A stretch of DNA of 56,404 nucleotides, the filler included, from Dugesia japonica (taxonomy: Eukaryota), in assembly GCA_001938525.1 (NCBI GenBank). It is 3 parts of 3 records of this genome, joined end to end, with 100 filler letters (N's around TTAATTAATTAA, not from the genome) between each part and the next. Parts side by side here need not be neighbours in the genome. Positions count along the whole stretch, not along the records: positions 44,121 to 56,404 come from MQRL01567029.1; 2 more parts are not named here. One strand, given 5' to 3'. A program made the translations under genes and the position numbers. The notes under the pieces were generated by a model. The model was not told the DNA's origin. It ran no database searches and worked only from the letters and a program-made list of their open reading frames with translations. Positions 5,074 through 53,629 of the stretch are shown here, piece after piece (the stretch's first letter is position 1; every line of letters starts with the position of its first letter).

Positions 5074-8000
5074 GTAAAGTTTTCAATTAATCCAAAATCT
5101 ATTTTATAATTGAATTACTGTAGATAATGATGGCGACAAAGCATATTTTGGACCTGGTAATTACATTTTATATCGCATTTTTATTTAGAAAAGTATATTT
5201 TTTTGTTTTCGTATACTACTGAATAATATTTTTTAAAATATTTTACATAAACATATTTTTAGAATATTTCAAGTTAATTCTTAAAGAAGAAAATTGTCGA
5301 AGCGTCAAATTACTAAAATCAACTAAAAAACAACATTTTGATCGAAGCTTTTTAATTTATTGAAACTTTAAAATCCTACAATTCTCGCAATTATTGTAGT
5401 TGTAAAATTTTACATAAGACTGAACAATTAATTTGAAGTTTGACACCATATCTAAGCTGTCAGTGGACATATATATGAAATCAAATATACATCTTCAAGC
5501 GTGAATTTTTAGCAATTAAAAATCGAAAATTCAAATCAATAAATAATCAAAATCCAGAGATATGACATTTTTTACATGTGAATAAATTTTTTCATGTTGA
5601 AAAGTTAACATTGAACAAAAAGTTGTTATCAAATTTAATGCCAAACTGGGAAAAAGTGAATCTGAAACATTCCAATTGATGCATCTGGTTTACAGTCATC
5701 TTTGTTTAAGCCGGTCAAATGTCTTTTAGTGAAACATGCATTTCTTGGAAGGTAGAGATTCATTGGAAGACGATAAACGTACGGAAAATTCGATTTCTTA
5801 TCGATTACAGGAAATTATAGAAAGAGTTTCTAAGTTCATGACAAACAATCGTTGTGCCTCATAGAGAATGATGNAAAAGGCTTAGATGGTAAACACATAA
5901 ACAATCCGAGCAGTGTTACACGAAAATTTGAAAAAATTTAAAATCTGTTCAAAATTTGTTCCGCGCTCCTTAATCAACGAACAAAATTTTAGTAGAACTG
6001 CACATTGCAAAAACATTAGTTAAGCTACTAAAAATGACAAACATTTTCTGAAACTAATTGTAACACGTGATGAAACACAATGCTTTCAATAAGACCCAAA
6101 AACTAAAAAGCAAAGTCCTGAATGAAAAACAAAGAACTCGTCTCAAACCAAGAAAATTTCCATCAAAAATCAAAACAATACTCATCGTTTTCTTCTAATA
6201 GTAGAGGTCTTATCCACAAAATATTTGCACCACCTTGATAAGCAATTAAAGTAAAGATGAAATAATTAATGACGTACTCACAAAGAAGGTGATAAATACA
6301 AAGTTGATAGAAACGTTGACAACACATTCTGATATTAAGATCACGGAAATGAGATCCCTAGAAAAGATAATGGAAGATAGAACACAGGCAATGAAGCCAA
6401 AACCGATAGTATCAATGAAATATTTGGCAATATGTTATTTTAATAGACAGAGAGGATTTCCAGAACTTCATAAAGAGAAACTCCAATAGGGACAATGTTA
6501 TTGCTCCGGAGAACATTGACATAAACGATACCATATAAAACAAATGTTTTATTGGTTTCAAATCTGGCCATAATTTTAGATCATGTTTGATTTTACAGGG
6601 TTCGTCTAGTAGAAAGAACACTAAAATTTTGTATATTCAAGACTAATTTGATGATTCAAAAGAAGACGAGGAGAGCGTGACAGGTCATGATGTAGTAATG
6701 GGAAAAACCAGAACGACTCAATTGCTTACATTTCGTTGATGGAATCAGTATAGAAAAAGGTAAAATAAATCGAAATGATGACGAAAGAGGAGAGATGTTT
6801 GTAAAAGAAGATGGGCGAGAGTAGAGTAGAGTAGATGTTAATGGAGTAAAGTTAGAGATTCAGAAGCTTTGGCGACAGTCATGAGTGAAAACTATGGGAT
6901 TAAAATTGGAAAACCGTTGCTGTCGATGTGCAATATCAGATTAATTGGAGCATTTAATAAGGTCGGAGAAAAACTTTTGGGTATAGCAGAATTAAGTATA
7001 CAGTGGAACAAGAAATTCAGGAAAATTAAAGTCATTATAGTTAGACAGATTAATACAATGGTATTAATACAATGCAAAGTTTTGGAGTAAAATTAACAGA
7101 AATAAATAACATTGAAAATGAGAGTCTGAAGATAACACTTTCTGATGAAGGTAGAGAAAATAACGCGTAGATATTGTTTAAAGGAATAGGTAACAGAAAA
7201 ATGGTTTCGTTGATCCAGAATTTTGGTGAGATATTCATGGCTTCAAAGTTCAATATTAGGCATAAGAAAAAAGTAATACATTAAATAAAAGTTATAGAAG
7301 AGCCAATGGTAAGGCACCCTAGAAGACAGTTGATGCGTTTAAAAGCAAAGTTGAGTAATGATTAAAGAATTAGCAAAGATTGGTGTGATCAGCAAATGTA
7401 ATAGTCCTTGGAATTCTCCATTAGTGATTGTGGGTAAAAAGGACGGCTCGATATGAATGTGCGTGGATTACAGACAAGGGAATTTGAGGATAGAAAAAGT
7501 CTGTTTTTCAATGCCAGATATTCAGTTATTATTAGATTGTTTATCTGGCTCGAAATTATTTTCATCGATTAATCTGAGACAAGCTTATTACTAAGTGGAG
7601 TTAGCGGGAAAGTCAAGTGATGTCACTGTTTTCAGTACAAAGGAAGGTTGATTCAGATTTAACCGAATGCCTTTTGGATTAGCTACCGTACCGGCTAGTT
7701 TTCCAAAGTTAATGCACGAGTTATTGTATATCTGGAGGATNTTCTGGTGTACGGAAAAACATTGGAGGATAACGACAGTCTTTAACAGGATCAGAAGATC
7801 GGGATTAAGAATAAGCCCGGAGAAATGTAGGTTTTATCAAAAAGAAGTGTTATTCTTGGGACATACAGTTAGTGCAACGTATATACGCACTAATGAAGTT
7901 AATATCCAGGAGATTACGAATGCTATAGTACCAAAATGTTCTTCAGAGCTCCATTAGTTTCTCTGAATAGCATACTATTACAGGCGTTTCATAGAAGATT

Positions 8001-11000
8001 ATGCAAAGATATCAGGTGATTTATATGAAGCAACTTCAAGTGGCAACAAATCGTTAGTTTGGACAGAAGCATGTCAGAGTAGTTTCAATGCGTTAAAAGA
8101 CAAGTTATGTAGTGCTTCAGTATTAGAATATTTCAGGGAGAATCCGATGTTTATTTTAGACACTGGCGCTAGTTTTGGGGCTGTCGGTGCAGTCCTTAGT
8201 CAATGTGGAGAGTCAAAGGAAGTGATAATAACGTATGGATCCAGACATTTGACAGTTCATGAAAGAGGATGCTGTATGACAAGGTAAGAACTATTAGCTA
8301 TACACGAATTTGTACAAAAATTCAAACAATATCTGTATGAAAATATATTTTTAGTAGGAACGGACCACAAAATGTTGGTGTTTCTGAACAAGACAAATAA
8401 ACCAATCAGTCCACAATTCCAGATATGGATGGCGAATCAGGGAGACTATGATTTTGAACTCAAGTATAGAAAAGGCGAAGAACACAACAATGCAGATGGG
8501 TTGTCGAGGCTAACGGAGAGTTTGTGTTCACAATGTAGCATGAAATATATAAATGCAAAAGAAGAAAAAGCCAGAGTGAAACATATCAATGGAATTCAAC
8601 ATGAGACCAATAGAATATCAACGATTTGACCGGCTCAGACAAAAGAATCAGCAATGTTGCAAGAAGAAGCTTTAAAAACTAAAAATAGTGAACAAGGAAG
8701 CTACTGGAATAAACTAAAGCACGAATTGAAAATAATCGATGATTTTATAGTAGTAGAAAGAGAAAAAAATTTTGTTAAGAATTTCGACAAGCATAGTTGA
8801 TAAAATGATAAAAAAAATTCATGAAGGTTTAAATCATGTGGGAAGGAAAAGTTATTTTCATACGTACTAGATGGATATTTCTGATCAGGGATGCGCGAGA
8901 CAATTAATGAAAGTATTGATAAATGCGAGATGTGTGCCAAAAGGAAAGTAGTACAAAGTCGTACAAAAGAAACACTTATACCGTGGAAAAGCCAAAGTTT
9001 TTGAGAACAAATCTTGGTGGGCATAGTTCATATAGAACAGTGCAAGTCTGGAAAGAAATATATAGTGTTAATTATTTATCGTTTTAGCAAGCTACTCAGC
9101 TTATTTGCAGTTTCAAAAATGGATGAAGAGACGGTTTTTATGATAATTTTGAGTAAACTAAAATCCATTCTGACTGACAGAAGAAAATTGTTTGAAAGTC
9201 AAATGATTGCAAATAAACTAGGAAAATTTAGAATTGTACAAGAATTTAGTTCCCCGTATCTACACCAGTCAAATAACGGATAATTCTAACAGTGAGGGAC
9301 ATGATTACTATATCAATAAAAGGGAAATGTAATGGGAAATATTGGGAGACATTATTACTGAGAGTAGAATTTAGCATTAATGCTACAATAAGAGTCAACA
9401 AAATTCTCTCCTTTCAAAATCGTATTTGGTTGAAAGATAAATCGGCATAATAAAGCGGAAACGCTCTTAAAAGAAAGGATAGACAGAGAAGAGATTATGC
9501 GACAAAAAATGGAAAATTTCGAGAAAGATAATCGAGGGCAAAGATAGTTTAAATAGGGAGAGTGGGTATGAGTCAGAGTAAAACCACACAAACAAAAGAA
9601 AAACGGTTTGCTGTATAATGGACTATACCAGATAAAATACAATATCTATAAAAGAAATTTTGAAAATAAATTAAGATTTCTAAAGAAATTGAAAAATTAC
9701 TTTATATACAAAAGACTTTGCAATTACTTTTATTTTTATGTTTATGCTCAGCAATATTACTACCACCACCAAAATGATTATGTTCTTGAACCCTTGTACA
9801 GAGATGACGGGCAGTCTCTCCAATGTATGTGGCATCACACCCATTACATTTAAATTGATAAACAAGGTTAGAACACAAACCAATTGGTGTATGGGATTTA
9901 TTAACAAAGCTATTAACAATCTTATGTGAAGAAGAGACAATTTTCAATAAAGGAAGATGCATTAGCAGCTTTCAGAATCGAATTCTTAAACTTTTTAAAA
10001 CCTTCAGAATAAGGAATCGATAAAACAAATGACCCCATACAATTTGATAAAATGTTATCAGATTCCGAATTATTCAATACAGTTTAAGTATTTTCATCGA
10101 AATGAATATTATTACCAACCAATGTTTTGTCAATTGTCTGCGAAGTTAATGAATTTAGAAATTGTTTATTAAATTCATTTGATTGCAGTAACTTTAATAA
10201 ATGTTCAATGCTTTAATGGATTTTGAATAAGTTGAGGACAACGACAAAGAACGAAATACTAAACCCTTTATCGTGTTCCTTTTATAAACAGGATCACAAA
10301 ACCTATTTGGGGTAGCATAAAAGCCAGTATCACTTTTCTTTCTGTATATTTCAGTTTCACAATGTGTTGATTTCCTTTCTATTAAAATATCCATAAAAAG
10401 CAAAATATCATTTCTTTCCTCGTCTACAGTAAATCTAATATTAGGATGTAACGAATTCAAAAAACTCTGGAAAGGCAAAACATATTCACGATTACCAAAA
10501 ATAAGGAAAACTTGGTCAACATATCTTTTGTAAGTAAGAGGCTTATTCAAAGAATACAAGTTCATTTGTTCTTCAAGCTTATTCAAGAAAATTGACGCTA
10601 ATGTCGGAGTCAAAGGAGAATCCATAGCCACTCCATCAATCTATTTATACCATTCATTGTTAAACAGAAACGAAAAATTAGCCGTTGCAAAAGTCAACAA
10701 TTCACGAAAAGCCGCTTTATTCAATTCAGAATGATCACTCGCATTATTCTCCCATAAATCACAACAAAGATCTATTGTTAGAAAAGATCTATAGTGAATA
10801 AGCTAAAAACATCAAAAGACACCATAACTTGACACCATAACTTAGACACCATAAACATTCTTTGATCACAAGTGGCTTGCGTTCATAAAATACCTAGAAA
10901 ATATACTAATTAATGTAATTGCATTTATTATAACATAAACAAATCCAGAAATGAAGGGTATTAAAATTTAAAGAAAATTTATATTGCAAATATCAATGAA

Positions 11001-14000
11001 ATTTCGTTGTGTCTGTTGTAAATGTTTTTGACTTTTCACGTCATTCAGTTCGCAGACAAATTAAAAATGAAAATAACTAAAAGATAATAAAAAGAGACAA
11101 TATTATTAAGATTTAATCAAAATAATGAAATGTTATGTTTCTAAATTTAGAATTCATACAAAAATAAATTATATTCAGGCTTTATTATTTCTTTCAATAC
11201 TTAGGAAAAGCGTATGAGTTGTTTCTTTTTTCAATTTATTAAAAAAATTACGCAATATAAATCTTTTATAAACATTACAACATTAATATATTTAGAATAC
11301 ACAATGTTTCGTTTTTTAATGTATAAATTCCATTTAGATATTTTACGAATGAGATTGATAAATAATAACGAAATTACTAAATTTACTATTTATTTTATTA
11401 AATGCAAAAAATTAATTGATTATTTATTAATTAATTATTTAAAAATATACATTTTTAAAATTTTGATTGTTGCACTGTTATTTAAAAAATAATTATAACT
11501 TATTTTAATAATTTTCTTTAATATAATAAAACTATTTCTAAAAAGCTTTCTTTTAATTACACATAATCTGTGTTTGGGTGTGTTTGAAAATTATACTTTT
11601 GATAAAACTAATGAGATAATATTAGTGTTTGATCAAATATGTGTACTGTTTAGAGCATAATTGTCCAAATCTTCAATCTTTTTTTAATTTTATGAACTTA
11701 TTCAAGGAGCACATGATCTCTTTTAGTTGTTTTCAATTGCAAATTTACTAATGAATGTTAAAGAAATGATTTCCAATTTAATAAATTAATGTAATTTAAA
11801 GAAATATTGGTAATAATTTTTTTTAATAAAAACCCAAAATAAATATTTAAACTGCTTGAAAGATCATAGTGCTTTGCGTGCGCATGATTTGGAGGAGGTT
11901 TTATTGCGCCCTCGAGCTTAAAAAGGCAGAACATCCCTGGTATAGAGCAATCGAATATTTATTAATAATATTGTTAGAGTTGTTCATTTTTATAAAAAAA
12001 GGAAATAAATAAAATTAATTAATTAATCAAGGACTGTAAACATCCTTGTTAAACTTATTGATTAACCCGCATAGTTAAACTATACTAGGTTTGGAGAACA
12101 TATCAAAGAATGGTTCAATAATTGAAAATTATCTTTAGAAAAAAAGAAACTAAATTAAAAAGATAAGCTGTGAATAATAAAATGAGAACCGAAATTATCC
12201 ATATCAAGCCACTCGAAAGGCTAAATTTGCAGGATTTTAAATTGATTATTTGTTCAACAGAACGCATTAAAATATCTCTGAAGTCATTAAAACCGGTATA
12301 TAAATGAAAACTAAACTGAAATTATGTTAGAGCAATTGTTCAAGAAATAAAATTCTTCTTCAAAATTTAAAAGTTACAAAAATAAATGAGTTTTTTTAAA
12401 AATATATTTGTAAATTATTTTAAGAAACTAACTTAGTACCTTCACATTAAAATAGTTAGGATTTAATTTAAGAATAAATATTTTATGTCTAATGGATAGT
12501 TTTGTATTAATTTATTATTCAGAAACAACCANNNNNNNNNNNNNNNNNNNNNNNNNNNNNNNNNNNNNNNNNNNNNNNNNNAATTTAAGAATAAATATTT
12601 TATGTCTAATGGATAGTTTTGTATTAATTTATTATTCAGAAACAACCAACATGTCCCAAAAAGTATTCAAAGAGTTCAGTACCGACGCACGAGTAGACGA
12701 AAATTCTGTGTGTGGCTTTATTTTCTGCGTGATAAAGAAAATCAACTTGCAAAGTGTAAGAAATGCGACAAAGAAATAAAATCACAAGGTGGCAGTACCA
12801 GTGGACTTCATACACATGTAAGAACAAACCATGAAATCGACTTGCTAAAGAGAAAATCGCCCCAAGACGCAACATCTTCATCGGTTTCGTTGCGATCGAC
12901 AAAATATCCCAAATCTTTGATCCCCGGTTTCTTCAAAAATCAACATGACAAGTTGTTGCCCGTAGTTTTATCTAGATTGACTGCCCTTGACGGACTGCCA
13001 TTTAGCATATTTGTTAAATCAATGAACTAAAAACAACACTAAAAGCTTGGGGGTTTGTTGTTCCGAAATAGGCGACGACAATTTGAAATTTGGTAGTCAA
13101 ATACGCAAACACAATCAGAGAGACGGTCATATCGAAGTTCATTCGTCTCCGATCGCAAGGAATGCGATTCAGTTTGACATTAAATGAGTAAATGTCAATT
13201 AAAAATCGTAGATATTTAAATGTCAACGTTCACATTGAGGACGAATTTTGGAGCCTTGGATTAGCTAGAGTTGTTGGTTGACTGTGTGCATAAAGTTAGT
13301 TCAAAAGATGTTGATGCAGTTTATGCTGAATTACGATTACGAATTGTGCATTACTACTGACGGAGCTTCTGTAATGCAAAAAGTGGGACGTTTAAGCAAT
13401 TGTGATCAACAGCTTTGCATTGTTCATAGCATTCAACTTGGTGTGCAAGACGTTTTTTACAAAAAACCGTCAACTTCTGCCAAAAAAGCTTGAAAAGAAT
13501 TTCCAATGACGAGAATAACAGTGAAATTGACGATGACGATGACAAAAATACGACCACTGACAATGACGCAAACATAAAAAATGATGATCAAGAAGACTTT
13601 TTCGGCGGGTTTCAAGTTGTGATGAGTGAGAAGGACAACACTATTGAACTGACTGATGATTTGCAGCCGATAATTGCTAAGGTGCGCAAAGTTGTAAAAT
13701 TGTTTCGCCGTTCTCCGACAAAAAATGATAAAACACTCCAAACATACACAGTAGACGAATTTGGTAAATCCTTTCCATTAATACTCGACTCCAAAACTCG
13801 TTGGAGTAACTTGCACACAATGTTGGAACGTTTCATGAAATTGAAAAATTGCATTCGCAAGTCATTGATTGGCCTTGAGTTCAAAATTGAGATAACTGAT
13901 AAGGAGTTCGACACAATTTCACCTGTTGTATCATGTCTCGCGCCAGTAAAATTGGCCGCGGAAACATTGTGCCGAAATGATGCGACATTGTTGTCAGCCG

Positions 14001-17000
14001 ATACAACACTATTGTTCATGGTAAATAACCTTGGAGTAACGGATTTAGCTGTTAAATTGAAAACTGCAGTGGTGATATGAATAAAAAAACGACAAACAAA
14101 CTTTTCCTAGCTTGCTGCGATATCTGCACAAAGATAATCAACGATACGAGAATTTGGATCCAGCACTGTCATTTGATCACCTTAGCAAATCAGCCATTGT
14201 AAATGCCATAGTTTGACTGAATGAGCGGCTCAATTAGCAAGCAGGCAAGCTTCTCCATTTGACCAGCGTTTCATCTGATAGCGATTTTGTTGACAGCACT
14301 GCAAACTTGACATTGAAGGAAAAGCTTGGCATGGCAATTTTGAATGATAAGTGTAAAAATAAGGGAAGATTGAACGTTTCAAAAGATTTATCAAAAACAA
14401 TCCGCAAGGAGATTGCAGTTTTTGAAGAAGCAGGAACTCGTGGATAATATTTGCGAAACTCTTACGAATACTTAAAAACTGTAAAGCCAACAAGTGTCGA
14501 ATCGGAACGTGGTTTTTCTGCAAGTGGCAACATTGTCACCAAATTACGATCATCTCTTGGTGATGACACTCTGAATGACCTTTGTTTCTTACGGGCATAT
14601 TTTACAAACGAGAAAAAAGCGTAAAATTATTAAAAATCTGTAATGTTGATATAAAATAAAAAGGTTTATTGAATCACTGTAAATTTTTACTATTTATTTG
14701 AGATAATAACCAAGTTATAATTTTTTAAGTTTCAATACCGGTGTTATACCGGTATTACCGGTATTGAAATTTTTCAGTACCGAAATACAGGTATTAAAAA
14801 TATGCAATTGCAATTATTGCGAGAATAATTGTTGGACTTAACAATTGATCGTTTTATATTAAATGAATTAAAAATATAGCCGGTATGGGATGCACTATTT
14901 TAAACCGAATACCTTTTACTTGTTATTGTAATTTGAGCTGTTTATATTGCTTTTGTAATATTGTAGAATCATCTTGTATATTTTATACATATGATTCACA
15001 AAAATATACTTCGATATCGGGCTATTAAAATTAAAATTAAAAAAGTCGACTTAACAACCATTCAAACATATTTTATAATTAATTGAGTAAGAATATTACA
15101 TGATAAGAGTAAACTAATTGCATAGTAAAGGAAATCTATTATTTTAAATTACCATTTAACTAAATTTGATTATATATTTTAATGGAATAATTTTAGATGG
15201 TACAGTACCAGTTTATCCAAGTATAAATTTTTTTATTTATTTATTTTTCATTAATAAAATAATCATTCAAATTAGTGCAAGATAAAAACAAAGTATTTAC
15301 GATTCCAAGTAATAATTAATATTCTTAAGTTCTAATTTCTTTTTAGAGATTTACATGGATAACTTCATTATAATTTATTTTATAATTTAGACTCACCATT
15401 ACTACACATAGCAAGTTCGATTTTAATTAGATTAAACTAATTAATTTTTGATTTAAAAAAACACCTCCTATTTAATGTTTAAAAATTGATATAGTATAAA
15501 AAGTGATACTCTAATTGGTAATTTTCATTTACTTTGTGATCATTAAAATAAAATAAAATATACATTTTTAATCTCTAGAAATTTATATTTTACTGAAATA
15601 TTCTTAAATTATTAATGTTTTTTTTCTCTAAGATGGATTTAAATATTCAAATAACTAGTTTTCTTCATAAAAACTATAAAAGTAAATTTTCACGAGAATC
15701 ATGAAATTACAGCGTAATTGTGTTTTTACGCTTTAATTAAAAAAACGTAATTAGAAAATTTAATTATTCAGAAATTAAATTTTCCATTGTAATTCAGATC
15801 AAGTAGCACCAGCAATACCTGTGGTGAAAAGTATAATTTTTGTAAATATTTTTTATAGAAATTAAATAATTAATCTTTTAGATTGTAAATTCAATCATAC
15901 AATAAATTATGAAAGTATAAAATTATTATTTCATTATTATATTAACATATTTATTCGTTTGAATATAATTTATTTATCCTAAACTTATACACAAATGCAC
16001 TGTAACATTATAAAAAAACTCCATTTTATGTAGTTAAATTTTAATTTACAAACATTTACTTAAGAATTCGTAATTATTTTTTTGTTATTTTTATGTTTTG
16101 CAAAAAACTGGCATGTATTGATGAAAACTACTAGCTGATAATAAATACGAACTGATAAAAATTTAATAAGAGAAGTCACATAAACGTGATGCCAGCAGAT
16201 AACTGTTGTTTACCTAAACTTACGAAAACGTGACTCCGTTGGTCAAAGTGCTAATAAATTATAATCGTATTTTTAATTATCAAAAATTTCAATAAATTAC
16301 TCTAAAATATTTTGAAAATATTCATAGTGAACTAAAACTTTTTAATGAAACGTCAATCTTATTAGAAATCAAAAACAAATAATTTTTATTTAAAAATGCT
16401 NNNNNNNNNNNNNNNNNNNNNNNNNNNNNNNNNNNNNNNNNNNNNNNNNNNNNNNNNNNNNNNNNNNNNNNNNNNNNNNNNNNNNNNNNNNNNNNNNNNN
16501 NNNNNNNNNNNNNNNNNNNNNNNNNNNNNNNNNNNNNNNNNNNNNNNNNNNNNNNNNNNNNNNNNNNNNNNNNNNNNNNNNNNNNNNNNNNNNNNNNNNN
16601 NNNNNNNNNNNNNNNNNNNNAATTTTTTAAAGATTATTTATTTAAAATGTTGAAAAAATTAATTAAATTAATATTAATTGTTTAATTAATAATTGTGTTT
16701 GTTTATGTGTGTAAATTAATTTAGTAAATCATGTTTGAAGATTAATACAAATTCTAAGAACATTAAAATTTAATTAAAATATTTGTAAGGAAGCATGTGA
16801 TTTAAAAAGAAGAAAACTAACAACTTAAATTTGTTAACTGAAAAAATATAGAAAAATTAACGTAACGACTAGAGGAATTTAAATTTTATAGATAATAGGG
16901 AACAGGTAAGAGTTTAAGTGAAATTGGAAAATAAAAATTAAAAATACAGATTTCAAAACGAAATTTGGTGAGGTTTATAAAAAAAGTATTGATTGAATTA

Positions 17001-21800: not shown

Positions 21801-24800
21801 AATCAAAATTTTCCCGCTCGTTTAAATAAAAAAATATCAATAACCTTCATGTTTATTTGATGGCTAATAAAAAAGCATGGATTATTGCCACACTATTAAT
21901 GAATGGTCTAATACTTTTTTTGTCCTAAACTATAAAGATATTTAAGTAGAAATTAACCAGATCATCCTCAGGACTTACAACACAAAAATGTAACACTTGT
22001 ATTTCTACGCAAGAATATGACTTCTTTGTTGCAGCCGTTAAATCAAAGAATAATTTACACTTTAAGACAATGTACATCAAGCAAACCTTCAAGTATATTT
22101 TAGAAAAAATGAAAATGGTGAATCTCTTACAATTATAGATGGTTGGAAAAAATTTACAATCTTTAATTGCTTGAAGCATGTCAGCGTGTCTTATACTGAG
22201 ATGAAGAAATCAACGCACCATGCCTGTTGGAAAAAGGTACAGGCAGCTGACGGTTCAAGTTTAGTATTGGAGCAATTTTATTCTCATGTAATTAAGTTGG
22301 CACATACAATATGAAGTGAAAGTTTTGAGGACTGTGCTGAGAAAGATATTATAGAACTAATGGCTAACAAAGAACTAGATAGAGATGACTTAATTAACAT
22401 GATTAGCAAAACAAAGAATCGTCAAAGTGATACTGTTGAAGAGGAACTTAAACCAGTTGAGTTCATATCAAAAACCATCAGTAAAAAACCTGAATTAGGG
22501 CTAAAATTGGGTTATCATTTTGCACAAAATGACAGTAATGTTTCAAGTTTCATTTTATTTTTATTTTCACAGAAATTTCTTGAGTTAGTTTCTAAAATCA
22601 ATTAATAATTTATGTAATTAATTTATTAATTATTAATTATGTCAACAATTTTCTGGCAATTTTTAACCCCCCTTCTCTCTTGTCAAAGTTTCAGTGACCT
22701 TTTTTACGCCATTCTCCCTTTTCAGTTTCGCTCTAATTTGATTCGATGGGGCGATGCAAACATTAGTGATTTTGAAAGGATTACTATTTTGGAAATCATT
22801 TTTCTTTCTGTTTTAGAGTTCTTTCTTGACCAATACCTTGTCTCCGATTTTGAAATCACGTTGGTCTCGTTTATCATTTTTGAAACTGGCCATTCTATTA
22901 GCAGTAATCTATAAATTCTTTCTGACTTTCTTTGTAATTTTGGAATCTAATAAAATTTGGTGATTCATTTCTGAATGTTGGTGTATCTTGTAACCAAATA
23001 CGGTTTCACAAGTCGAGAATCTCGTCCAATTTTGTTAAGCTGCGTTAATACTAAACTCAATTCTCGGAAGTAAGTCATGCTAGTTTTCTCTTCACAACAT
23101 CNTTTTAAAGAATCAATGATCATGTCACGGATGGTTCTCATCACTCTTTCTACTAGACCGTTGGACTGATGTTGGTACGGATAACTAAATTCATGTAAGA
23201 CCGCCAAATCTTTCCACTTCTGTTGAAGCCATGTGCTCTCAAAATTTTTTCCACTGTCGGTCAAAATACTTATTTATCTTCCAAATTTATATATCCAGCT
23301 GTTCATAATTATTATGAAAATTGATTGACAATGCATCTTAAACAATTCACTCCAACGAACCAACTTGATAAAGCGATCAATGATAATCAATGCCGTTTCT
23401 TCTCGGAATCAATATTTCTTTTGTACGAGTCGGATCTATTTTTCTTATAGTTCAAACAATACAAGCTTTCAAACATGAGCTGATTGAACTCCACATTGAT
23501 GACCAGAATTTTTCTAGTATTAAAATNNNNNNNNNNNNNNNNNNNNNNNNNNNNNNNNNNNNNNNNNNNNNNNNNNCTTCCAAATTTATATATCCAGCTG
23601 TTCATAATTATTATGAAAATTGATTGACAATGCATCTTAAACAATTCACTCCAACGAACCAACTTGATAAAGCGATCAATGATAATCAATGCCGTTTCTT
23701 CTCGGAATCAATATTTCTTTTGTACGAGTCNGATCTATTTTTCTTATAGTNCAAACAATNCAAGCTTTCAAACATGAGCTGATTGAACTCCACATTGATG
23801 ACCAGAATTTTTCTAGTATTAAAATAAGAATTTCCATCATCTTTCTTATAACCAGAAAATTGTTTGCTACATTAAGACTATCTTATCAGTGCGTGTAATG
23901 AATAATTTTCTATATAGATATTATTTAAAATATAAAACAAATTTGTATAAGGTTAACAATTCCTTTCTTGTCAAACAGTATCCTAGTTCATGAGTGGACA
24001 AATGCCCGCATCCATTTACAAAAACAACCTTAGTACCATTCTCTCTCATTTGATATAGTACTGTTTTTATGGCTCCAAAATTAGTATCTGTATTCAGCAC
24101 AAAAACTCAATCCTTCCTAGGAAAGTCGAATATTAGTGCATTGCATAATTCTTTAGATTTAATAACTTTGCTGACACCGATTGGTCTATTGCAAAACTTT
24201 GCATAATAATGCTGCAATTTCTTCATATCCGTGAATAAATTTTCGATAATAGTTTGTTAATCCCAAGAAAGAACGCAGGTGAGAAACACAAATAGGAGAC
24301 TCTGCTTTAAAAATTTCTTCAATTTTGTTTTTTTTGTTTTTACTCCTTCAACACTCACTGTGTGTCCCAGAAAAATTAATTCTCGTTGATGAAATTTACA
24401 TTTTCCCAGATTTATCTTTAATTGAGCACTACTAATTTATGGACAATCTTACTCCAATATATGGAGAGCTATAAACCATAATATCTTCAAGATAAACCAG
24501 TACACTGTTGAAAAAAAGGCCTTTTAGTAGTTCATGTATTAGTTTCTGAAACGTTGTTGCTGTTGTCAATCTAGTAGGCAAATGAATGAAACAAAACTGA
24601 CCTTGTTTGATACCAAAATCTGGAACCAACCTTTACTTTTCTGACAGCTCCACTTGATAAAACGCTTGACCCAAATCTATTGTTGAAAAATGTTTGGAAT
24701 TAGTCAAACAGTCAAATAGCATCTGCATCTTTTGCATAGGAAATGTAAACTTCTCAAACTACTTGAAAATAATTTAGGACCTACAACTTTTCTCTATGTT

Positions 24801-30417: not shown

Positions 30418-31792
30418 GCTAATTAGCGTTCGATATTATTATAAAAATAATTAAATCTGGTCCAGTCACTAGTTAGTTTGGATTTTCCAAAATCCAAACT
30501 AACGAGAATTCATGCATTTACATTGGTGATTCAACAAAGGCCACCAGCACGACAACGCGAATTTCGTTTTCCAAATTCGTTGTCAATCATCTATACACCA
30601 CAACTTCGGATTGTAGTATAAGGCGAAGAAAATTCAGAACAAAACCAGAACAAGGAGTAACCAATGAGGAAACGAGATTGTAGAAAAATCAAAAATGATT
30701 GGCCAGTAGTGGTGTCTCAACAATCAGACATTCAATTTAGGCAGAATAAAATTACGATGCAAAAAAATCAAGAAACACAATTTCTGACATTTTAATTTTA
30801 AAAACGCTGTTTGAACAATTATTAAATATTTTAAACACTATTGAAAGAAAATTTTTTAAACGAAATTTTAAACTCGGCTCAACGCAAAAACTCTTTAACA
30901 ATTTGTTCCAGCTTAATTTTAATTTACCAGAAGAGGGAAATTTTGAAAGTTTATAGCAACCAACATTTGTAAGCCATCTGAACAATTTTAATCGAACAAA
31001 GTAAGGATTTGGTTACATTTTTATATCGATGCATTATATGAAATTAATTTAAAATTTTTTTTTAACAAAATAAAATCATGACCGAGTGCCAACCTGGGAA
31101 GCTGGTAGTGAAATCAAAATGAGATGAAAGTTAATGATGAGAAAAGTTTATTTTTTTGTGTGGCTCGTAATTATGTATGGGGAGTGTACGGGAATTCAGA
31201 GGAATTCGCCCAGTAGAAATTATTCGTAGAGCGAGAGAGTCGATACTGAGAGTAATACTAAATGGAGGTCTGTCAGATTTCAGTGGGTGTAAAACTTCCA
31301 GTAAAATTTTTCTGATTTCTGATGTGATTATTGTGTAATTGATTATAATTTAATTGTGGAAAAGGTTTTGGTTTTATTGTCCCAAGCAATAATAATATCT
31401 AATAAAAATTATAAACATTATTCAGATTTTATTTTTATTTTATTTATTATTAATTATGTTATATAATCATTTTCTTTTTATTTATATATTTTAGTTATTA
31501 ATAGTAATGTGTTATAAAAAATAAATGGAACCGCCATGATTTTAGTATTGAGGAGTGATCCACAGGACGAATGGTAGTGGGAACGAGGAAAGATATCTGT
31601 TGCCAGCGGGTATCTTCCCTGGTTCGTACTACGGGATGTGAGAGATAGTAATAGATTGTAGGTCGATGTAAATTGAACAAATTCTGAGAAAATTACCAAT
31701 CTGATCTTATGATTATAAATTTGTCATTATTAGCTTTATAATGTCCGCATCGTAGGTGGAGTAAAATATTAACAGTTTTATATTTCTAATAG

Positions 31793-32182
31793 ATGACTAA
31801 AGGCAGGAGAAATCTGAAAAGGCCCCGCTACATTTGGCCATACATCGACACGGATGGCCGGTATTATATCGAATGGGCGGAGGTCCAAGATATGATTCGG
31901 GCGGAGAAGATATCGCTGAAAGAAGAAGTGGATGAGTTGAGAGCGGATCTTGAGACCGCCAACTTACATATCACCATTCTCGCTGCGAACAACGAACTCC
32001 ACAGGGCGCAACGGGATCGATTTATGGCGGTCCTCGAGGAGACCGAGTTGACAGCTGCAACCGAGGATATTCAACCGCCGGAGCCGGAAGTGAACGATGA
32101 GAATGAACAAGCCGAGCGAGAGGAAAGTGACATCATGCGGCTATTGCTGGGCCTGAGTGGTGCTGGCATGGCCGAGTTGTAA
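31793..32182 (+). CDS. Orphan 129-aa ORF: basic N-terminus, coiled-coil, acidic tail; probably an accessory gene of a mobile element
   Basis: Intact GC-rich ORF in AT-rich DNA; heptad-like ISLKEEVDELRADLETANLHITILAANNE; ATG directly after the splice acceptor tttctaatAG; AATAAA just after the stop. Confidence 0.7.
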   Translation: MTKGRRNLKRPRYIWPYIDTDGRYYIEWAEVQDMIRAEKISLKEEVDELRADLETANLHITILAANNELHRAQRDRFMAVLEETELTAATEDIQPPEPEVNDENEQAEREESDIMRLLLGLSGAGMAEL

Positions 32183-32620
32183 TATAAAATAAAATTGTGA
32201 GTCGTATAAAATTGGTTGTTGGATTTTGTGTTATATTCGGTTTAAATCGTTTGGAATGGGATATGTACGTCCTGACAATCTGCAAAGGCAGTGTTGAATC
32301 AGTTAGAATTCAATTTTAATAATATTAAATAAGAATAGAATTATTTAATAATTCATAGATAATGATATATATTTAAATTTAATTCATTGGAGGAGTTGGA
32401 CTTGGATTGTTGATATTTGTTTTTATTTGGTATCGATAAAAGTGTATTATGGAGATTTACATTAATTTTAAGATTCTAAAGCATTTAGATAGCCAGGAAT
32501 TCCAATTTATCAGTTGCTATTGTGCAGAACATTGGGCAATGATTTGCTCGATTTAAAATTATATCGCCAACAAATAATGAGCCAAGGCGGGTGTTAGAAA
32601 TTGGGAAGCAGAAACGTAAG

Positions 32621-32730
32621 ACGCGATACCACAAAGTCGCGCTGAACCCGCGGAAAGAGGGGCATGTCACAGAGGTGACTAAATGCTTGTGGTTTTTAGG
32701 TATGCCCCTAGACGAAANNNNTCAGGTTTA
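32621..32730 (+). other. GC-rich multi-hairpin element downstream of the orphan ORF
   Basis: CGCGAT/GTCGCG hairpin; AGGGGCAT (32658-65) pairs with ATGCCCCT (32702-09), enclosing a GTCAC-agag-GTGAC hairpin. Confidence 0.55.
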
Positions 32731-32822
32731 TTAAGTGATGGGAACAACTAGATAAAAAGAGATGGATATTAAAATCAGATATTCGAAATCCTAAAAAACC
32801 CAACATATATATTATATATTAT

Positions 32823-44020: not shown

Positions 44021-44120
44021 NNNNNNNNNNNNNNNNNNNNNNNNNNNNNNNNNNNNNNNNNNNNTTAATTAATTAANNNNNNNNNNNNNNNNNNNNNNNN
44101 NNNNNNNNNNNNNNNNNNNN
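44021..44120. other. Artificial scaffold-joining spacer (N44-TTAATTAATTAA-N44)
   Basis: Same as 30318-30417. Confidence 0.95.
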
Positions 44121-44492
44121 TATCTTAATCTGAACAAGAGCACTATTCTCCGGACAGGGGAGGTAAGCACACTTATCGGAACGGAACTCAAGAGAAGACC
44201 AATCAGCCCAACGAACAGCAACATCGATCATGTCCTGAATGGAGGCTTTTGAAGATGCTATCAACGCAAGATCATCCGCATAAGCTAAAACGGAGATGTG
44301 ATAACCAGCACAACTAACTCCACCTCCGGGAGTCTTTCCTATTTCCTTGATAACTGGGTCAATACCAATGTTGAAAAGTAACATCGACAAAGGACAGCCT
44401 TGTCGGGCTCCTCTTTTATTTGCAATAGGATTGGTAGAAGTCCCATTACAAATATAATAGCTTGAGCAATCCGTATACAAGCTCCTAATCAA
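44121..44492 (-). mobile_element. Non-LTR retrotransposon RT fragment (R2/NeSL/Utopia-like)
   Basis: KRGARQGCPLSMLLFNIGIDP; ISVLAYADDLALIA; LEFRSDKCAYL; open up to the scaffold edge. Confidence 0.9.
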
Positions 44493-45339
44493 ACAAATAT
44501 TTATTTTAACACTCTGAACTAAATAAATTTAAAAATTATTTTATTGAAAAATCACTGAAACTTAATTTATTTAAAATTTATTTTTAAATTTTATTAATAA
44601 TCAATTTCTTAAATATAAATTAATTATTAATTCATTAATTATAATTTTGTGAAATGAAAATGAATTTTTAATACTTAATAAAATTTAAAACCCAAATTTC
44701 ATAATAATCTTTAACCTTAACCTTGAACATTTAAAAATAGTATTTACACTTAAAAGAATCAGACTAACAACTTGCAACATGCTAACGTATCTTACAGTTG
44801 CAGTTGATATATTTTTAATAAATATCTTAGAAAATTCAATTAATATCTTTTATGTAAAAAATTTCAATTGAAAGTAGACTTTGATGATTCAATTTTTAAT
44901 TTTTTTTACTAAACTACTATTTATTACTGTTTTTTTTCCAAAAAAACCGTTTCAACTCAATTAATTACGAAGGGGTAAAATGAAAATATCGACTAAATAT
45001 TTTAATAAATAATAGTTAAAATTAATTTAATAAACGACAAAAATTTAAAGTGAATTATAAGACATTAAATTTTATTTTTAAAAATGTAATTAAATGTAAA
45101 AAAATGTAATTTTGATAATGCCTTAGAAATAAATATCTTGTAAATAAAAAAATAAAAATTTTAATTAAGTAAATTGAAGGTAGATTTATTTGAATAATTG
45201 TTGTTTGTAAATATATTTTGTGTTTAATTATTTATTTGTAATGAATACCAGTAATTTACGAATCAATAATTCCAACACAGCTGATTTATATTAACTTTTA
45301 TTTCATCAATAAATCAATATAATTTTGAAATTTGAAATT

Positions 45340-48871: not shown

Positions 48872-50173
48872 TAAACATTTTGTATGATCATAATCAACTT
48901 AACAAGTGTCATTAATTGTTCACATGTGAATATGGATTGATAAAATGTCAAACAATAACTGCAATAATTTTGTTTGAGAAAAGTTGTTGTGAATCGAAAA
49001 AAATGCTCATGAATTTTATTAAAACCAAATTAAATTTTACATGAAATTTTAATAGGGAGATAAAATGGAAATCAATTGAAATTTCTCATCGATTAACATA
49101 CATAACAGCTAAATTATCTGACGAATGATCTTTGTTTACGTTGTAGTTTCAATTATAGATTGCCAGGTAGTTTATTGATTTTGTCTCTTGTTTGATTTTA
49201 GTGTTTAACCCTTTTACTGGGTAAAATTACTGATGAATTATTTTTTTGACTGATTTAATTCGCGAAAATTAATTAATCCAATTTAAATATATTTATGTTT
49301 CAATATTGACTTATCTATCTCAAATCAATTTATTTATAAAGTAATTTGTTTTTTTCTGTCTATTAAGACTTTCTGAATTTATTTTAGATTATAATTATTT
49401 GATAGGATAATTTTCTCAGTTTAATTTGAGTTTAAGAAATAAATTATTTGATTGCTCGTTGATTTAAACTTTCTGAGTTTGTCGTGTAATTGGTTCATAT
49501 GTTTGTGAATTATTTTGTAAACGATTAGTTTTCACTTCGGCTAGAGCACAAATTTTAGAGTTTTTCACTACATGCTTTTTTCCAAAAATATTCTTAATTT
49601 AACATTTTTTTTATTCCTATTATGGGCTATCCATAAAATTATATACGCACTGAGAGGAGGAAATTTTGCACACATAGAAGGAAAGGTGTAACAAAAAGAT
49701 ACATGGTAATAGTAATTAAAAAAGGGACATGATAAAAGTTATCACATTAAATTTGAAAATGGTAAAATAGTTATCAGAAATGTAGAGTATGAGATGTGAG
49801 GATATTCTGTACATATTGTAAACATTTATTCCAATTGTATGTTGCATACTTAATAATTTACCGTCAGTTCAAATGTATAGCATCTTGCATAATAGATCGG
49901 CATTTGTATGTTGATTGGCGAAGGTTGATTGCTCAAATCGTAATCGTATATATATTTATTCTAGGTTTTCTAAATTATCATTGTGAGTATCCATTCATGA
50001 ATTTCGGATGTCTGAGATTTTTTAATTTTTATATTTAATATTAAGATTGGTTTNNNNNNNNNNNNNNNNNNNNNNNNNNNNNNNNNNNNNNNNNNNNNNN
50101 NNNATAAATATATATGTAAAACAAAGATATTTTAAATTAAAGTTAAAATTTTACATGGTGTTAAATTATGTTG

Positions 50174-50324
50174 GGGTCCCACCTGAGTTGAGTGAAAAAG
50201 ATGGAGGCTGGGGAAAAACAGCCCTCAGGGGACCCGTCCAAGAATTTACCCTGACGCCCNNAGGTCAGGTCTTCAGCATATGGTGGTTGACCTCTCTCTT
50301 AATGGGAGGTGCACGCCCATAAGC
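50174..50324. other. Three consecutive GC-rich hairpins at the element end (R/U5-like)
   Basis: GGGTCCC..CTGAG / CTCAG-GGGACCC enclosing GGCTG/CAGCC; CCTGAC/GTCAGG; TATGG..ACCTCTC / GGGAGGT..CCATA. Confidence 0.7.
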
Positions 50325-50436
50325 CTTTTATTCGGGTTCACTGTTTTCCCTCAATATATTCAAAAATTTAAGCCCGTGATAATTGAAGCATTTATTACTA
50401 TAACATTTACAATCCGTCCAATACCCCAGGATCTAA

Positions 50437-50742
50437 TCACTGATATGGGTTGGTAGTTAAAAAATTGAACGCCGCGACGTCATCGTCGTCGTTCCACTGC
50501 ACCCAAGCTGGATTACCAATCTGGCGAGAAAGGTCGGCGATATATAATTTTAAAAAGTCTATCTTTCTTAACAGAAGTTGCTTATTTTCTGTTTCCAGGG
50601 CCTTGGTTTGGGCCGCCAAATCGTTTTGTTTTCGAAATATCAAATCCAATTTTTTTATGAGCTTGTCACGCTGAGCAAGATGTCTGAGAAGGGCTCGATC
50701 TGCTTTAAGTTTTAAGTGGCGTTCCAACAATAGACGGCGCAT
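50437..50742 (-). CDS. Orphan 101-aa basic/coiled-coil protein with acidic tail (MRRLLLERHLKLK...WNDDDDVAAFNFLTTNPYQ*)
   Basis: Intact ORF inside the putative LTR; splice acceptor tttttctttAG at 50791-50790 just upstream. Confidence 0.65.
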   Translation of the reverse strand: MRRLLLERHLKLKADRALLRHLAQRDKLIKKLDLIFRKQNDLAAQTKALETENKQLLLRKIDFLKLYIADLSRQIGNPAWVQWNDDDDVAAFNFLTTNPYQ

Positions 50743-50905
50743 GATACGATGACATCTCCGCAAGCTAGTTGGGAATACGATTCGAGGCACTAAAGAAAAA
50801 TTATAGTTAAGTCGGTGAACCCCAAGTTTAGAATTTGGGGAAACAAAGTAGACAATATGCAAATCAATAATTTATTAAAGTTAATCAAAACTGTAAACAT
50901 AATAC

Positions 50906-51139
50906 TCAGGAGTGGTTAGTCTGAATGCCTTTATCGATCAAGAGGGGAGTCAAAGGTGTAGCTGCCNTCAACTTCAATATATTTCCCAAGAGTTGATTCT
51001 CACGCTCCTGATAAGATTTGATAATTTCAGTAAAAGTTTCGACATGTGTTTTCCATACCCTCTCTAGATTCTGGGTGGCGTCTACTTCAGATTTTAAAGA
51101 CAAACATTTCAGCTTGTAAAGTTTCTTTTCCGATTTCAA
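50906..51139 (-). CDS. Orphan coiled-coil-like ORF inside the putative LTR
   Basis: KSEKKLYKLKCLSLKSEVDATQNLERVWK...IIKSYQERENQLLGNILKL; no clear ATG. Confidence 0.45.
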   Translation of the reverse strand: MKSEKKLYKLKCLSLKSEVDATQNLERVWKTHVETFTEIIKSYQERENQLLGNILKLXAATPLTPLLIDKGIQTNHS

Positions 51140-51304
51140 ATGGTGAATTTTCGAATGGATCGAAGTGAATTTCTTTCTTTTTTATAATTAATTTAACCAC
51201 AATCAAAAGGATACTACTTTGATTTCCGTTTAAGGTAGAGTAAAAATTTCTTCGTATGTGATTAACTGGTATAATGCTATTTCTTCTCTCGATAAATTTC
51301 CGAT

Positions 51305-51520
51305 TTAGAGTATGTAGTTTAGTAGTTCACAATTATTACAAATTTGTTGTTTTTTGTTTCTAAATTCAAGGGATAGGATTTTCTGCACACCCCAACTTCT
51401 TCCAGATTTGTGGGTTTTTTTTAGACTGAAATTTTCCGATTTTATTGGTTCCAGTGACAATTTTCTAAAATTTTTACAGAGTTTTGGAAACTCAATTGGT
51501 GTGTATTTTTGGAATGACAC
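51305..51520 (-). CDS. Orphan basic ORF inside the putative LTR
   Basis: ORF track, 71 aa, ends with CNNC; co-oriented with its neighbours. Confidence 0.35.
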   Translation of the reverse strand: MSFQKYTPIEFPKLCKNFRKLSLEPIKSENFSLKKTHKSGRSWGVQKILSLEFRNKKQQICNNCELLNYIL

Positions 51521-51562
51521 ATGACAATTTGGTCTTTGTTTTATTTTTATTTTTTAGATCTC

Positions 51563-51742
51563 TCATTGGCCCGATCTTGAAAGCCCTGTAACAACCTTCT
51601 GGATGGTGGTAAATTTTTTCTTCCTAGCAATTTTGATGCGTCTTGTTATTTTCTTTTCGTATTTTCTTACCCGGGTTCTTTCCGATCTCCGTGAGTGAAG
51701 TATTTCGGCCAAAACAGAATTTTGACTAATTTCGCTTCTTTT
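51563..51742 (-). CDS. Arg/Lys-rich open frame inside the putative LTR (...LHSRRSERTRVRKYEKKITRRIKIARKKKF...)
   Basis: About 59 open codons with no ATG (below the ORF-track cutoff). Confidence 0.35.
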   Translation of the reverse strand, partial: KRSEISQNSVLAEILHSRRSERTRVRKYEKKITRRIKIARKKKFTTIQKVVTGLSRSGQ

Positions 51743-53629
51743 TTATTTTAAAATGAATTAATAATTTTCTGTTAATTAATTATTTTCCTTTAATGATTTC
51801 TTAATTTCTTCTTAGGAATTTAATAATTCTTTTTAATTCCAGTATTGATGTAAGTTGGTTTTATGTTACCCGGTTCTTCGTATTCATCTTCGATTTTGTT
51901 TCATTCTTTTCTAATGGTGGTTTCATGCTTTACCTTCTATATTTCATTATTGGTGAATATANNNNNNNNNNNNNNNNNNNNNNNNNNNNNNNNNNNNNNN
52001 NNNNNNNNNNNTTCATGCTTTACCTTCTATATTTCATTATTGGTGAATATAATGGTCCTGCCGTTCTTTTCCGTTGATTCGGGCCCTTCGGCCTTATTTC
52101 CTTTTAACGGGTGTTTCTCCCCAACAATTATAAAATTTTAAAAATTATTTTCTAAAATGAGGTTTAAAAATAATTATTTTGGAATTTAAAAAACCAATAT
52201 TTTTGAAAAATATTTTATTAAGATTTCTCAGATTATTTATTTGGAATTTGTGAATTGTTATTTCATATTTTTTTTTAAGAAAAGACTTGTAATAACCAAT
52301 AAACAATTTATTGAGACTTGTGAGACTTTAAATTTAACTAATAAACATATATCAAATTCGAGATTAAATTCAAATAAATTTCGAGATAAAAACAAAAGTG
52401 TGATTAGTTATATCATCAGATCGAATACAGAAATAAATTATAAAAACGGGTTATAAAAGAAACAACTCATAATCAAATTGGAAACAAAGCAAGTGGTGAG
52501 ATCAAGTTAAAGACAGAATCACTTCAAATCGAAAACAAAACCAAGTTAAAAGATCAAATTAAATATGGAAACAAATCCTGAAATGAAAATGAAAACAAAT
52601 TTAGTAAATGAATGAGAGCCGAATTTATTTTAATTTATGAAAACAGTTTGATTTATAAGATCAAATAGAAGTAAGGAAAAGCAGGAGTAATTTATGAAGA
52701 GACAACAAAATTATTGAGATTGAATGAATTAGATTACGATGATTGTAAAACAATTGTCATTGAGATCGGACGAAAGAGTTTGCGCAATGAGAAACCGAAT
52801 TCAATTGTCAAGGAGATCAAATTATAGTGCAGTAATCCAAACCTGATTATTGATGAAATTAAATGAAAAGTTCAATGAAAATTCAAAAATTGATTTGCTA
52901 GGTAAAATCAGAAAACCAAGGTAATTTATGAATCAAATAATTCACACGGTCGAATTAAAAGCCAAAATAATTTATGAGATGGTCGCTCGATTACCTGATA
53001 AGTTATATTTTCATTTCAATTTTTTTTTATTTTACTTTCTTAAAAAAATTTCTATTGTTTAAGTTTGTTTAAATTTTAATAATGAAATTGTAACTATTAT
53101 CTTTATATATAAAGTTAAATGTTTATTTGTGTTTGGTTATTTTTGAAATTCTATTGGACGAAAGTAAAACGAATGTCCAATTAAATGTCCAATTAATATT
53201 TTATTTCTCCTAATCAATTACAATAAAATTTATCTTATGTTTAAAAGAACTTATGTATAATGTAACTATAACTTTCCACCTTGCGTTAAACTTTATAATT
53301 TTGCTGAAAAAATATTATATAGTAGTCTTCTAAAAAAAGGAGTAAATTTTATTTTGTTTGCTAGATTCAAAGTAAAATGTTAAATGTTATTTACAACTAA
53401 ATATGTTATTTAAAAATAAATCAAATTTACATAATCAAAAAATCGAATTTTTAAAAAAAATTATAGTAAAAAANNNNNNNNNNNNNNNNNNNNNNNNNNN
53501 NNNNNNNNNNNNNNNNNNNNNNNNNNNNNNNNNNNNNNNNNNNNNNNNNNNNNNNNNNNNNNNNNNNNNNNNNNNNNNNNNNNNNNNNNNNCAAAAACAT
53601 CTGAAATAATTAGAATTGTAATAATATTG

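Follow-up and report, generated by a model that had tools for sequence, protein, structure and literature searches.

A candidate solo long terminal repeat with probable small genes in its predicted U3 in the genome of the planarian Dugesia japonica

Genes inside the U3 (unique 3′) region of a long terminal repeat (LTR) are textbook knowledge for a few vertebrate retroviruses, namely sag of mouse mammary tumour virus (MMTV) and part of nef of human immunodeficiency virus (HIV). Does a mobile element of the planarian Dugesia japonica have them too? The question is raised by positions 50169-52126 of a 56,404-nucleotide stretch joined from three parts of assembly GCA_001938525.1 (the window; the element lies in the part from MQRL01567029.1), where the original prediction placed a giant solo LTR with a cassette of five orphan genes in its U3. 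With somewhat better than even confidence, we regard the element as a solo LTR from a retrotransposon with long LTRs, probably of the Ty3/Gypsy type, whose family likely has at least one small gene in the predicted U3 (open reading frame 5, ORF5, and probably frame 4 as well). A gag-pol partner was never seen, and we therefore infer both the LTR status and the polarity of the element. That it is mobile, multi-copy and inserted in the manner of an integrase product, while lacking enzymes of its own, is supported by empty-site joints, contig counts and frame searches.

Two contig runs (X1 and X2) and two poly(A) RNA runs (X18 and X21), four of the 24 listed, were aligned to positions 49950-52350 at 82% identity. 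Nine of 15 joint rows (of 32) connect the left flank directly to the right flank and skip the entire element; two of these nine skip exactly 1962 bases (1958+4) and seven skip 1966-1986. These empty-site joints identify the element as a single insertion with a 4-bp duplication, and the notion that its ends had been paired by chance was rejected on the same evidence. The TG..CA ends and the 4-bp ATTA target-site duplication (TSD) that had been predicted are present in the sequence, and it is the joints that confirm the insertion. The window has seven TG..CA pairs that combine a perfect 8-bp inverted repeat with a 4-bp flanking repeat, so that such ends and TSD are not beyond chance by themselves and prove little; 50169-52126 is the sole GC-rich pair among the seven. 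The terminal 8-mers, TGTTGGGG on the left and CCCCAACA on the right, each occur once in the window. The inverted repeat between the ends stops after 8 bp, and the insertion target at this one site is AATTAT. A published definition of solo LTRs includes 5′-TG..CA-3′ termini with a short inverted repeat (PMC12440569). A 4-bp TSD lies in the 4-6 bp range of LTR retrotransposons and is compatible with Ty3/Gypsy without being diagnostic.

The family is clearly not single-copy. The element region is matched by 8302 and 6803 contigs in the two DNA runs, at 82-99%+ identity and with all bins covered, and the ORF5 block by ∼ 50-70 contigs per site; contig depth should not be equated with copy number, and unrelated contigs collect in AT-rich bins. 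Depth minima at 50355-50435, 50841-50921 and 51084-51326 are for the most part located in the intervals that separate frames. Depth is high in two AT-rich spacers, which probably reflects unrelated contigs. The flanks of the element consist of a very high-copy AT-rich repeat (summed depth ∼ 9,000-166,000). Some contigs connect 52148-52174 back to 50104-50106, within these flanks (49950-50168 and 52127-52350), a hint of a tandem or foldback host repeat.

Pfam searches of the element frames tested gave no match to gag, pol or transposase, in agreement with what had been predicted, and four flank frames tested also had no Pfam match. Neither a primer-binding site (PBS) nor a polypurine tract (PPT) was found adjoining either end. 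Self-BLAST and a repeat search found no sequence common to both ends beyond 8 bp, and a two-LTR mini-element (terminal-repeat retrotransposon in miniature or large retrotransposon derivative) was rejected for that reason. A 50-N gap at 51962-52011 lies inside the element, with an exact 40-bp duplication on either side (51922-51961 = 52012-52051). This gap and the duplicated 40-mer inflate the element, whose true length is probably ∼ 90 bp less than 1958. The other 50-N gaps of the window (12532, 23527, 32945 and 55722) have the same pattern; near-exact direct duplications of 40-361 bp flank all five. These are artefacts of scaffolding, which make the sequence too long and can be mistaken for repeats.

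Five minus-strand frames are present where they had been predicted (Table 1). The stop-to-stop frames of this strand measure 144, 91, 82, 79 and 59 codons, and their lengths were compared with 2000 dinucleotide shuffles in three block sizes, with thresholds set post hoc. Four frames of at least 79 codons are rarely obtained (0.6-0.7 expected; P 0.0005-0.002); the longest frame gives P 0.005-0.011, the 101-codon ATG-initiated ORF P 0.025-0.032 and five frames of at least 59 codons P 0.03-0.06. The GC contents of ORF5 at codon positions 1, 2 and 3 are 0.53, 0.29 and 0.46. Ten diverged contig pieces in the ORF5 and frame-4 blocks carry 206 substitutions over 1762 bp and not a single gap. In comparison, six pieces across other stretches carry 128 substitutions and 11 gaps over 1012 bp, with five of the six gapped. 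Fisher's test by piece gave 0.0014 for the pooled data, 0.018 for X2 alone and 0.11 for X1 alone, from the 16 longest of 15,189 pieces, among which those of X1 and X2 perhaps represent the same copies. Among 12 of the 14 indels, none falls in 50437-50789 or 50906-51139, whereas frame 3 has three and frame 1 has one, in a table whose 10% threshold favours low-depth spacers.

Copies ∼ 12% apart without any indel suggest divergence under coding constraint. From these comparisons ORF5 is likely to be coding in the element family and frame 4 probably so, while frames 1 and 3 are doubtful and frame 2 is undecided. A cassette of five genes was thus an overstatement, although the part of it that comprises ORF5 and probably frame 4 appears to be under constraint: frameshifting indels in other copies interrupt frame 3 (51346-51372), indels also occur in frame 1 (52083), and frames 1-4 have neither a start nor an acceptor, an in-frame ATG being found in ORF5 only. 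Frames 2, 3 and 4 (51742-50906, minus strand) share one reading frame with 7 stops over 279 codons, an arrangement that could have arisen by chance (1 in 9) or be what is left of a single long ORF.

ORF5 had been called intact and is open, but it is not unaltered. Its stop codon has at 50437 a letter that almost no other copy with coverage there shares (21 contigs in X2 and 26 in X1), and this copy has five further private differences at codon positions 1-2. The private stop letter indicates that the family ORF probably ends elsewhere, and the copy at 50169-52126 is probably dead. Where a strong splice acceptor had been predicted ahead of ORF5, an acceptor-like site lies at 50790; it is the only site of the element to pass a crude filter, but 38 such sites exist in the window on both strands.

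The alternative that survives best, although unlikely, accepts the solo LTR but not the genes. It holds that the U3 is long and non-coding, with conserved regulatory blocks, and that the A-rich strand keeps frames open. The lack of homologues and of RNA (see below), the missing ATG of frames 2-4, the P of only ∼ 0.03 for the ATG-ORF and the higher GC content of the conserved blocks would all agree with it. It is less easily reconciled with the gap-free divergence of ORF5 and frame 4, with the codon-position GC pattern of ORF5 or with the local dinucleotide shuffles, which retain strand bias and still leave the four long frames at P ≤ 0.002.

Table 1. Positions of the element, its termini and its frames in the window.
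Feature	Position	Strand	Remarks
Whole element, putative solo LTR	50169..52126	- (presumed sense strand)	1958 bp as assembled
Left target-site duplication ATTA	50165..50168	.	Sequence; empty-site joints skipping 1962
Right target-site duplication ATTA	52127..52130	.	Sequence and contig joints
Terminal 8-mer, putative U3 att end	52119..52126	-	8-bp inverted repeat only
Terminal 8-mer, putative U5 att end	50169..50176	-	Sequence; no PBS- or PPT-like neighbour in either polarity
GC-rich terminal block, putative R-U5	50177..50354	-	Contig depth; holds AATAAA 50332-50327, TGAACCCG 50340-50333, donor-like site 50249
Frame 1, broken	51830..52120	-	Interrupted by assembly gap 51962-52011; two stops outside the duplication; other copies have an indel at 52083
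Frame 2, Arg/Lys-rich	51563..51742	-	59 codons, no ATG; donor-like site at 51670
Frame 3, basic	51305..51553	-	82 codons, no ATG; indels in other copies at 51346, 51350, 51372, 51550
Frame 4	50906..51181	-	91 codons between stops, without in-frame ATG; good coverage from other copies over its 3′ two thirds; 2/2 pieces gap-free
ORF5 (product P0001)	50437..50742	-	101 aa; frame open upstream to 50871; 8/8 contig pieces gap-free
Acceptor-like site	50790..50810	-	AG preceded by branch-like TTAAC and pyrimidine tract; 48 nt upstream of ORF5 ATG; out-of-frame ATG 50755 between

The two ends of the element, which bear on what kind of element carries these frames, differ strongly in depth. In summed contig depth the block 50193-50354 exceeds the ORF5 block 12.8-fold in X2 and 7.8-fold in X1, with a step at 50354, and the opposite end is not raised. 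This one-sided excess fits an R-U5 (repeat and unique 5′ regions) common to many LTR types better than a transposon with terminal inverted repeats (TIRs). We consider it rather improbable that the element is a non-autonomous DNA transposon of the Ginger or IS481EU kind, with very short TIRs, that captured small genes within a 1.9-kb unit. TGTNR-type ends and a 4-bp TSD are shared with Ginger1 and Ginger2 (PMC2836005), IS481EU has TGT..ACA ends, TIRs mostly < 50 bp and 4-bp TSDs (PMC10045372), and a full-length LTR partner was not seen. The depth of one end at 8-13x that of the other is not expected from such a unit, and the Ginger-like alternative offered in the original prediction is unlikely since neither TIR length nor target fits: Ginger TIRs measure 40-297 bp and the targets are CCGG/CCGT or RTATAY (PMC2836005), compared with 8 bp and AATTAT here. 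IS481EU/Banshee is considered unlikely, being reported from parabasalids only.

The solo-LTR reading places a putative U3, R and U5 in this order on the minus strand. The minus strand is A-rich in most bins of the element. The opposite, plus polarity would make the ORFs antisense, for which HBZ of human T-cell leukaemia virus type 1 is the model, and we find this very unlikely. Both termini read TGTTGGGG inward and give no orientation, and the promoter and poly(A) signals behind the chosen orientation are at chance level, so far in keeping with either strand; a plus-strand LTR would have to begin its U3 with the high-copy conserved block, although the start of U3 is usually its most variable part, and its A-rich strand would be the wrong one.

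Similarly low is the probability that we assign to a composite, in which a short, very abundant 190-bp element (a small LTR or similar) acquired coding sequence that has since decayed and was perhaps a single long ORF. The depth step at 50354 and the common reading frame of frames 2-4 are what a composite would predict. Set against these are the absence of the short block from the other end, the TG terminus that the far end has of its own, the TSD that brackets the entire unit and, in other copies, the frameshifting indels and depth trough that separate frame 3 from frame 4.

The preferred reading, a solo LTR with at least one gene, has to accommodate several results that weigh against it, in addition to the limits attached above to the contig depths, the indel table and the gap comparison. 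No copy next to gag-pol, a PBS or a PPT was found, and the viral, metagenome and prokaryote collections searched gave nothing relevant. The U3-R-U5 signals that had been predicted are at chance level; the one-sided depth fits an R-U5. There is no TATAWA between the ORF5 stop and AATAAA. The AATAAA hexamer occurs seven times on the minus strand (3.8 expected), and the canonical copy is disrupted in relatives, as seen from loose contig ends at 50328 (68 and 48 contigs in the two runs). The region of the three hairpins folds no better than shuffled sequence (z -0.45 and -0.92). Hairpins, AATAAA and TATA, all at chance level, were consequently dropped as evidence of orientation. Rfam gave no match at E up to 1, and no tRNA was found in the window.

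Transcript data also weigh against it. X18 and X21 are two of seven raw RNA runs listed, and ∼ 25% of each was read. Among the runs listed as containing the sequence, none is registered as RNA, which is evidence in neither direction. The region is matched by 106 reads in X18 and 22 in X21, of which 94-100% continue into unlike sequence; none covers 50274-51164 and none contains a splice joint, so that the spliced transcript expected from the acceptor at 50790 was not recovered. The element family is probably silent in these two poly(A) samples. Planarian transposons are commonly silenced by PIWI-interacting RNA (piRNA) (PMC8532177). A handful of X18 and X21 reads match only 50193-50273 and then diverge, which may reflect weak transcription of relatives that differ upstream; too few reads fall in the terminal block for an orientation to be read from them.

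The ORF5 product, P0001, has a basic N-terminus, a predicted 74-residue helix and a short acidic/aromatic tail helix. The net charge is +10 over residues 1-75 and -4 over residues 76-101, with a zipper-like LETENKQL at residues 49-56. A single-sequence model shows helices at 2-75 and 85-95, with a predicted local distance difference test (pLDDT) score of 81.5 and a predicted template modelling (pTM) score of 0.43. Homologues were found neither by a word-index search nor among 1.84 billion representatives, and there is no exact record, a further point against a functional gene. Pfam returned only sub-threshold coiled-coil rows, Atlas no homologue (best 0.87, recognition 1487), the Protein Data Bank sequences two coiled-coil matches that are not homologues (E 0.036-0.047), and viral folds nothing at E 0.001 or less. 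Element DNA had no match in viral contigs, and a tblastx comparison with the window gave nothing under E 0.4. Two apparent matches were discarded, one in a metagenome (a chance 19-mer in a bacterial gene) and one in a bacterial metagenome-assembled genome (a 39-aa coiled-coil likeness). With no homologue found, any function of P0001 is a guess from composition, and any coiled coil would look alike, which again weakens the case. By its composition, P0001 would most likely be a zipper-type small regulator, either a trans-activator or an antagonist of host silencing, with a basic coiled coil and an acidic tail.

If the element is the solo LTR that we propose, its history can be outlined. An integrase would have produced the 4-bp duplication at insertion, and LTR-LTR recombination would have removed gag-pol and left the solo LTR behind. 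The GC-rich 190-bp end would be an R-U5 common to many more elements than the U3 of 50169-52126, with related lineages swapping or rapidly replacing their U3 content. As with MMTV sag, full-length elements would give rise to a subgenomic RNA that uses the 3′-LTR acceptor at 50790 for splicing and terminates in R.

An extended version of this model is tentative. It would see a complex-retrovirus-like lineage in an AT-rich animal genome, with one R-U5 and interchangeable U3 modules, each holding at least two spliced orphan accessory genes that encode basic zipper-like coiled coils with acidic tails. On this view every solo LTR would scatter a cassette of genes, and ∼ 31174-32805 would be another such module, built alike but deeply diverged. 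The similar build of this second LTR-like candidate (plus strand) also counts in favour of the solo-LTR reading. Its TG..CA ends resemble those of 50169-52126; it starts with TGTATGGGGAG and ends with CCCAACA, between unmatched flanks (ATTA/TATA). Inside it an intact orphan ORF of 129 aa, the coiled-coil/acidic P0002 (31793-32182), lies directly behind an acceptor-like AG that falls narrowly below the filter. The model of P0002 has a long helix and a tail helix, and a search for homologues found none. The 8-mer TGAACCCG has just two occurrences in the window; noted post hoc, these lie 172 and 163 bases away from the 3′ ends of 50169-52126 and 31174-32805, respectively. DNA and protein comparisons of the two elements revealed no similarity beyond that of shuffles.

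The remainder of the window (GC 26.9%) contains many decayed mobile elements. LTR-type pol fragments lie at ∼ 500-2270 (minus) and 7970-9280 (plus), with decayed LTR-type pol at 6250-9600 (plus). There is a GIY-YIG remnant at 9700-10640 (minus), presumably Penelope-like to judge from its motifs, a BED-finger hAT at 12617-14080 (plus), non-LTR reverse transcriptase remnants at 44073-44528 (minus) and, at 22965-23707 (minus), a segment that its motifs lead us to take as integrase-like. None of these pol, integrase-like, GIY-YIG, hAT and reverse transcriptase remnants adjoins 50169-52126. A third small orphan frame at 1310-1594 (plus) has a zipper-like word and an acidic tail but no Pfam match; it sits in a stretch inserted antisense into decayed LTR-type pol (∼ 493-2266, minus).

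The element can be compared with several known systems. In MMTV sag and HIV-1 nef the accessory ORF lies wholly or partly in U3 and is expressed via spliced RNA (PMC12789967), a layout that 50169-52126 may share. There is no sequence or fold similarity to either, ORF5 has no predicted transmembrane segment, and U3 identity and splicing are presumptive here. Burro/GYPSM1, a giant Gypsy element of > 30 kb with a giant polyprotein from a dugesiid planarian, resembles our case in its AT-rich, Gypsy-crowded genome, in being a long element with accessory ORFs and in its thousands of copies (PMC6431247, PMC11410931). Compared by description only, it differs in that its described ORFs occupy the internal region, with none mentioned inside the LTR in section 7 of that source (PMC6431247). 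The sORF1 and sORF2 of the Drosophila MDG1 group are accessory ORFs of ∼ 70-110 aa in an invertebrate Gypsy-type setting, under selection and piRNA-silenced, but are located outside the LTR (10.1101/2025.03.14.642691). In plant Ogre elements the LTRs measure 1.9-6.5 kb, and additional ORFs without a known function again occupy the internal region (PMC6431247). The label 'giant' given to the LTR is apt with respect to the usual 100-500 bp (PMC6238403), yet ∼ 1.9 kb is only the low end of the Ogre range.

The literature searched contained no report of genes inside the LTR of a Gypsy-type element from a non-vertebrate animal; this is a weak negative, with most subscription papers, Repbase, the Burro primary paper and supplements outside its coverage. 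Genes within such an LTR do not appear in passages of PMC11410931, PMC13238120, PMC12440569, PMC10045372, PMC13524379 and PMC6238403. Small accessory ORFs outside the LTR of invertebrate Gypsy-type elements are known, and what would be new here is the likely presence of one or two genes within it. Should the frames not be genes, 50169-52126 would be an ordinary long solo LTR. If they are, a class of orphan genes would be hidden under the label 'LTR' in repeat libraries, hundreds of promoter-plus-gene units would be dispersed as solo LTRs, and the encoded proteins would be direct candidates for self-activation of the element or for countering piRNA silencing.

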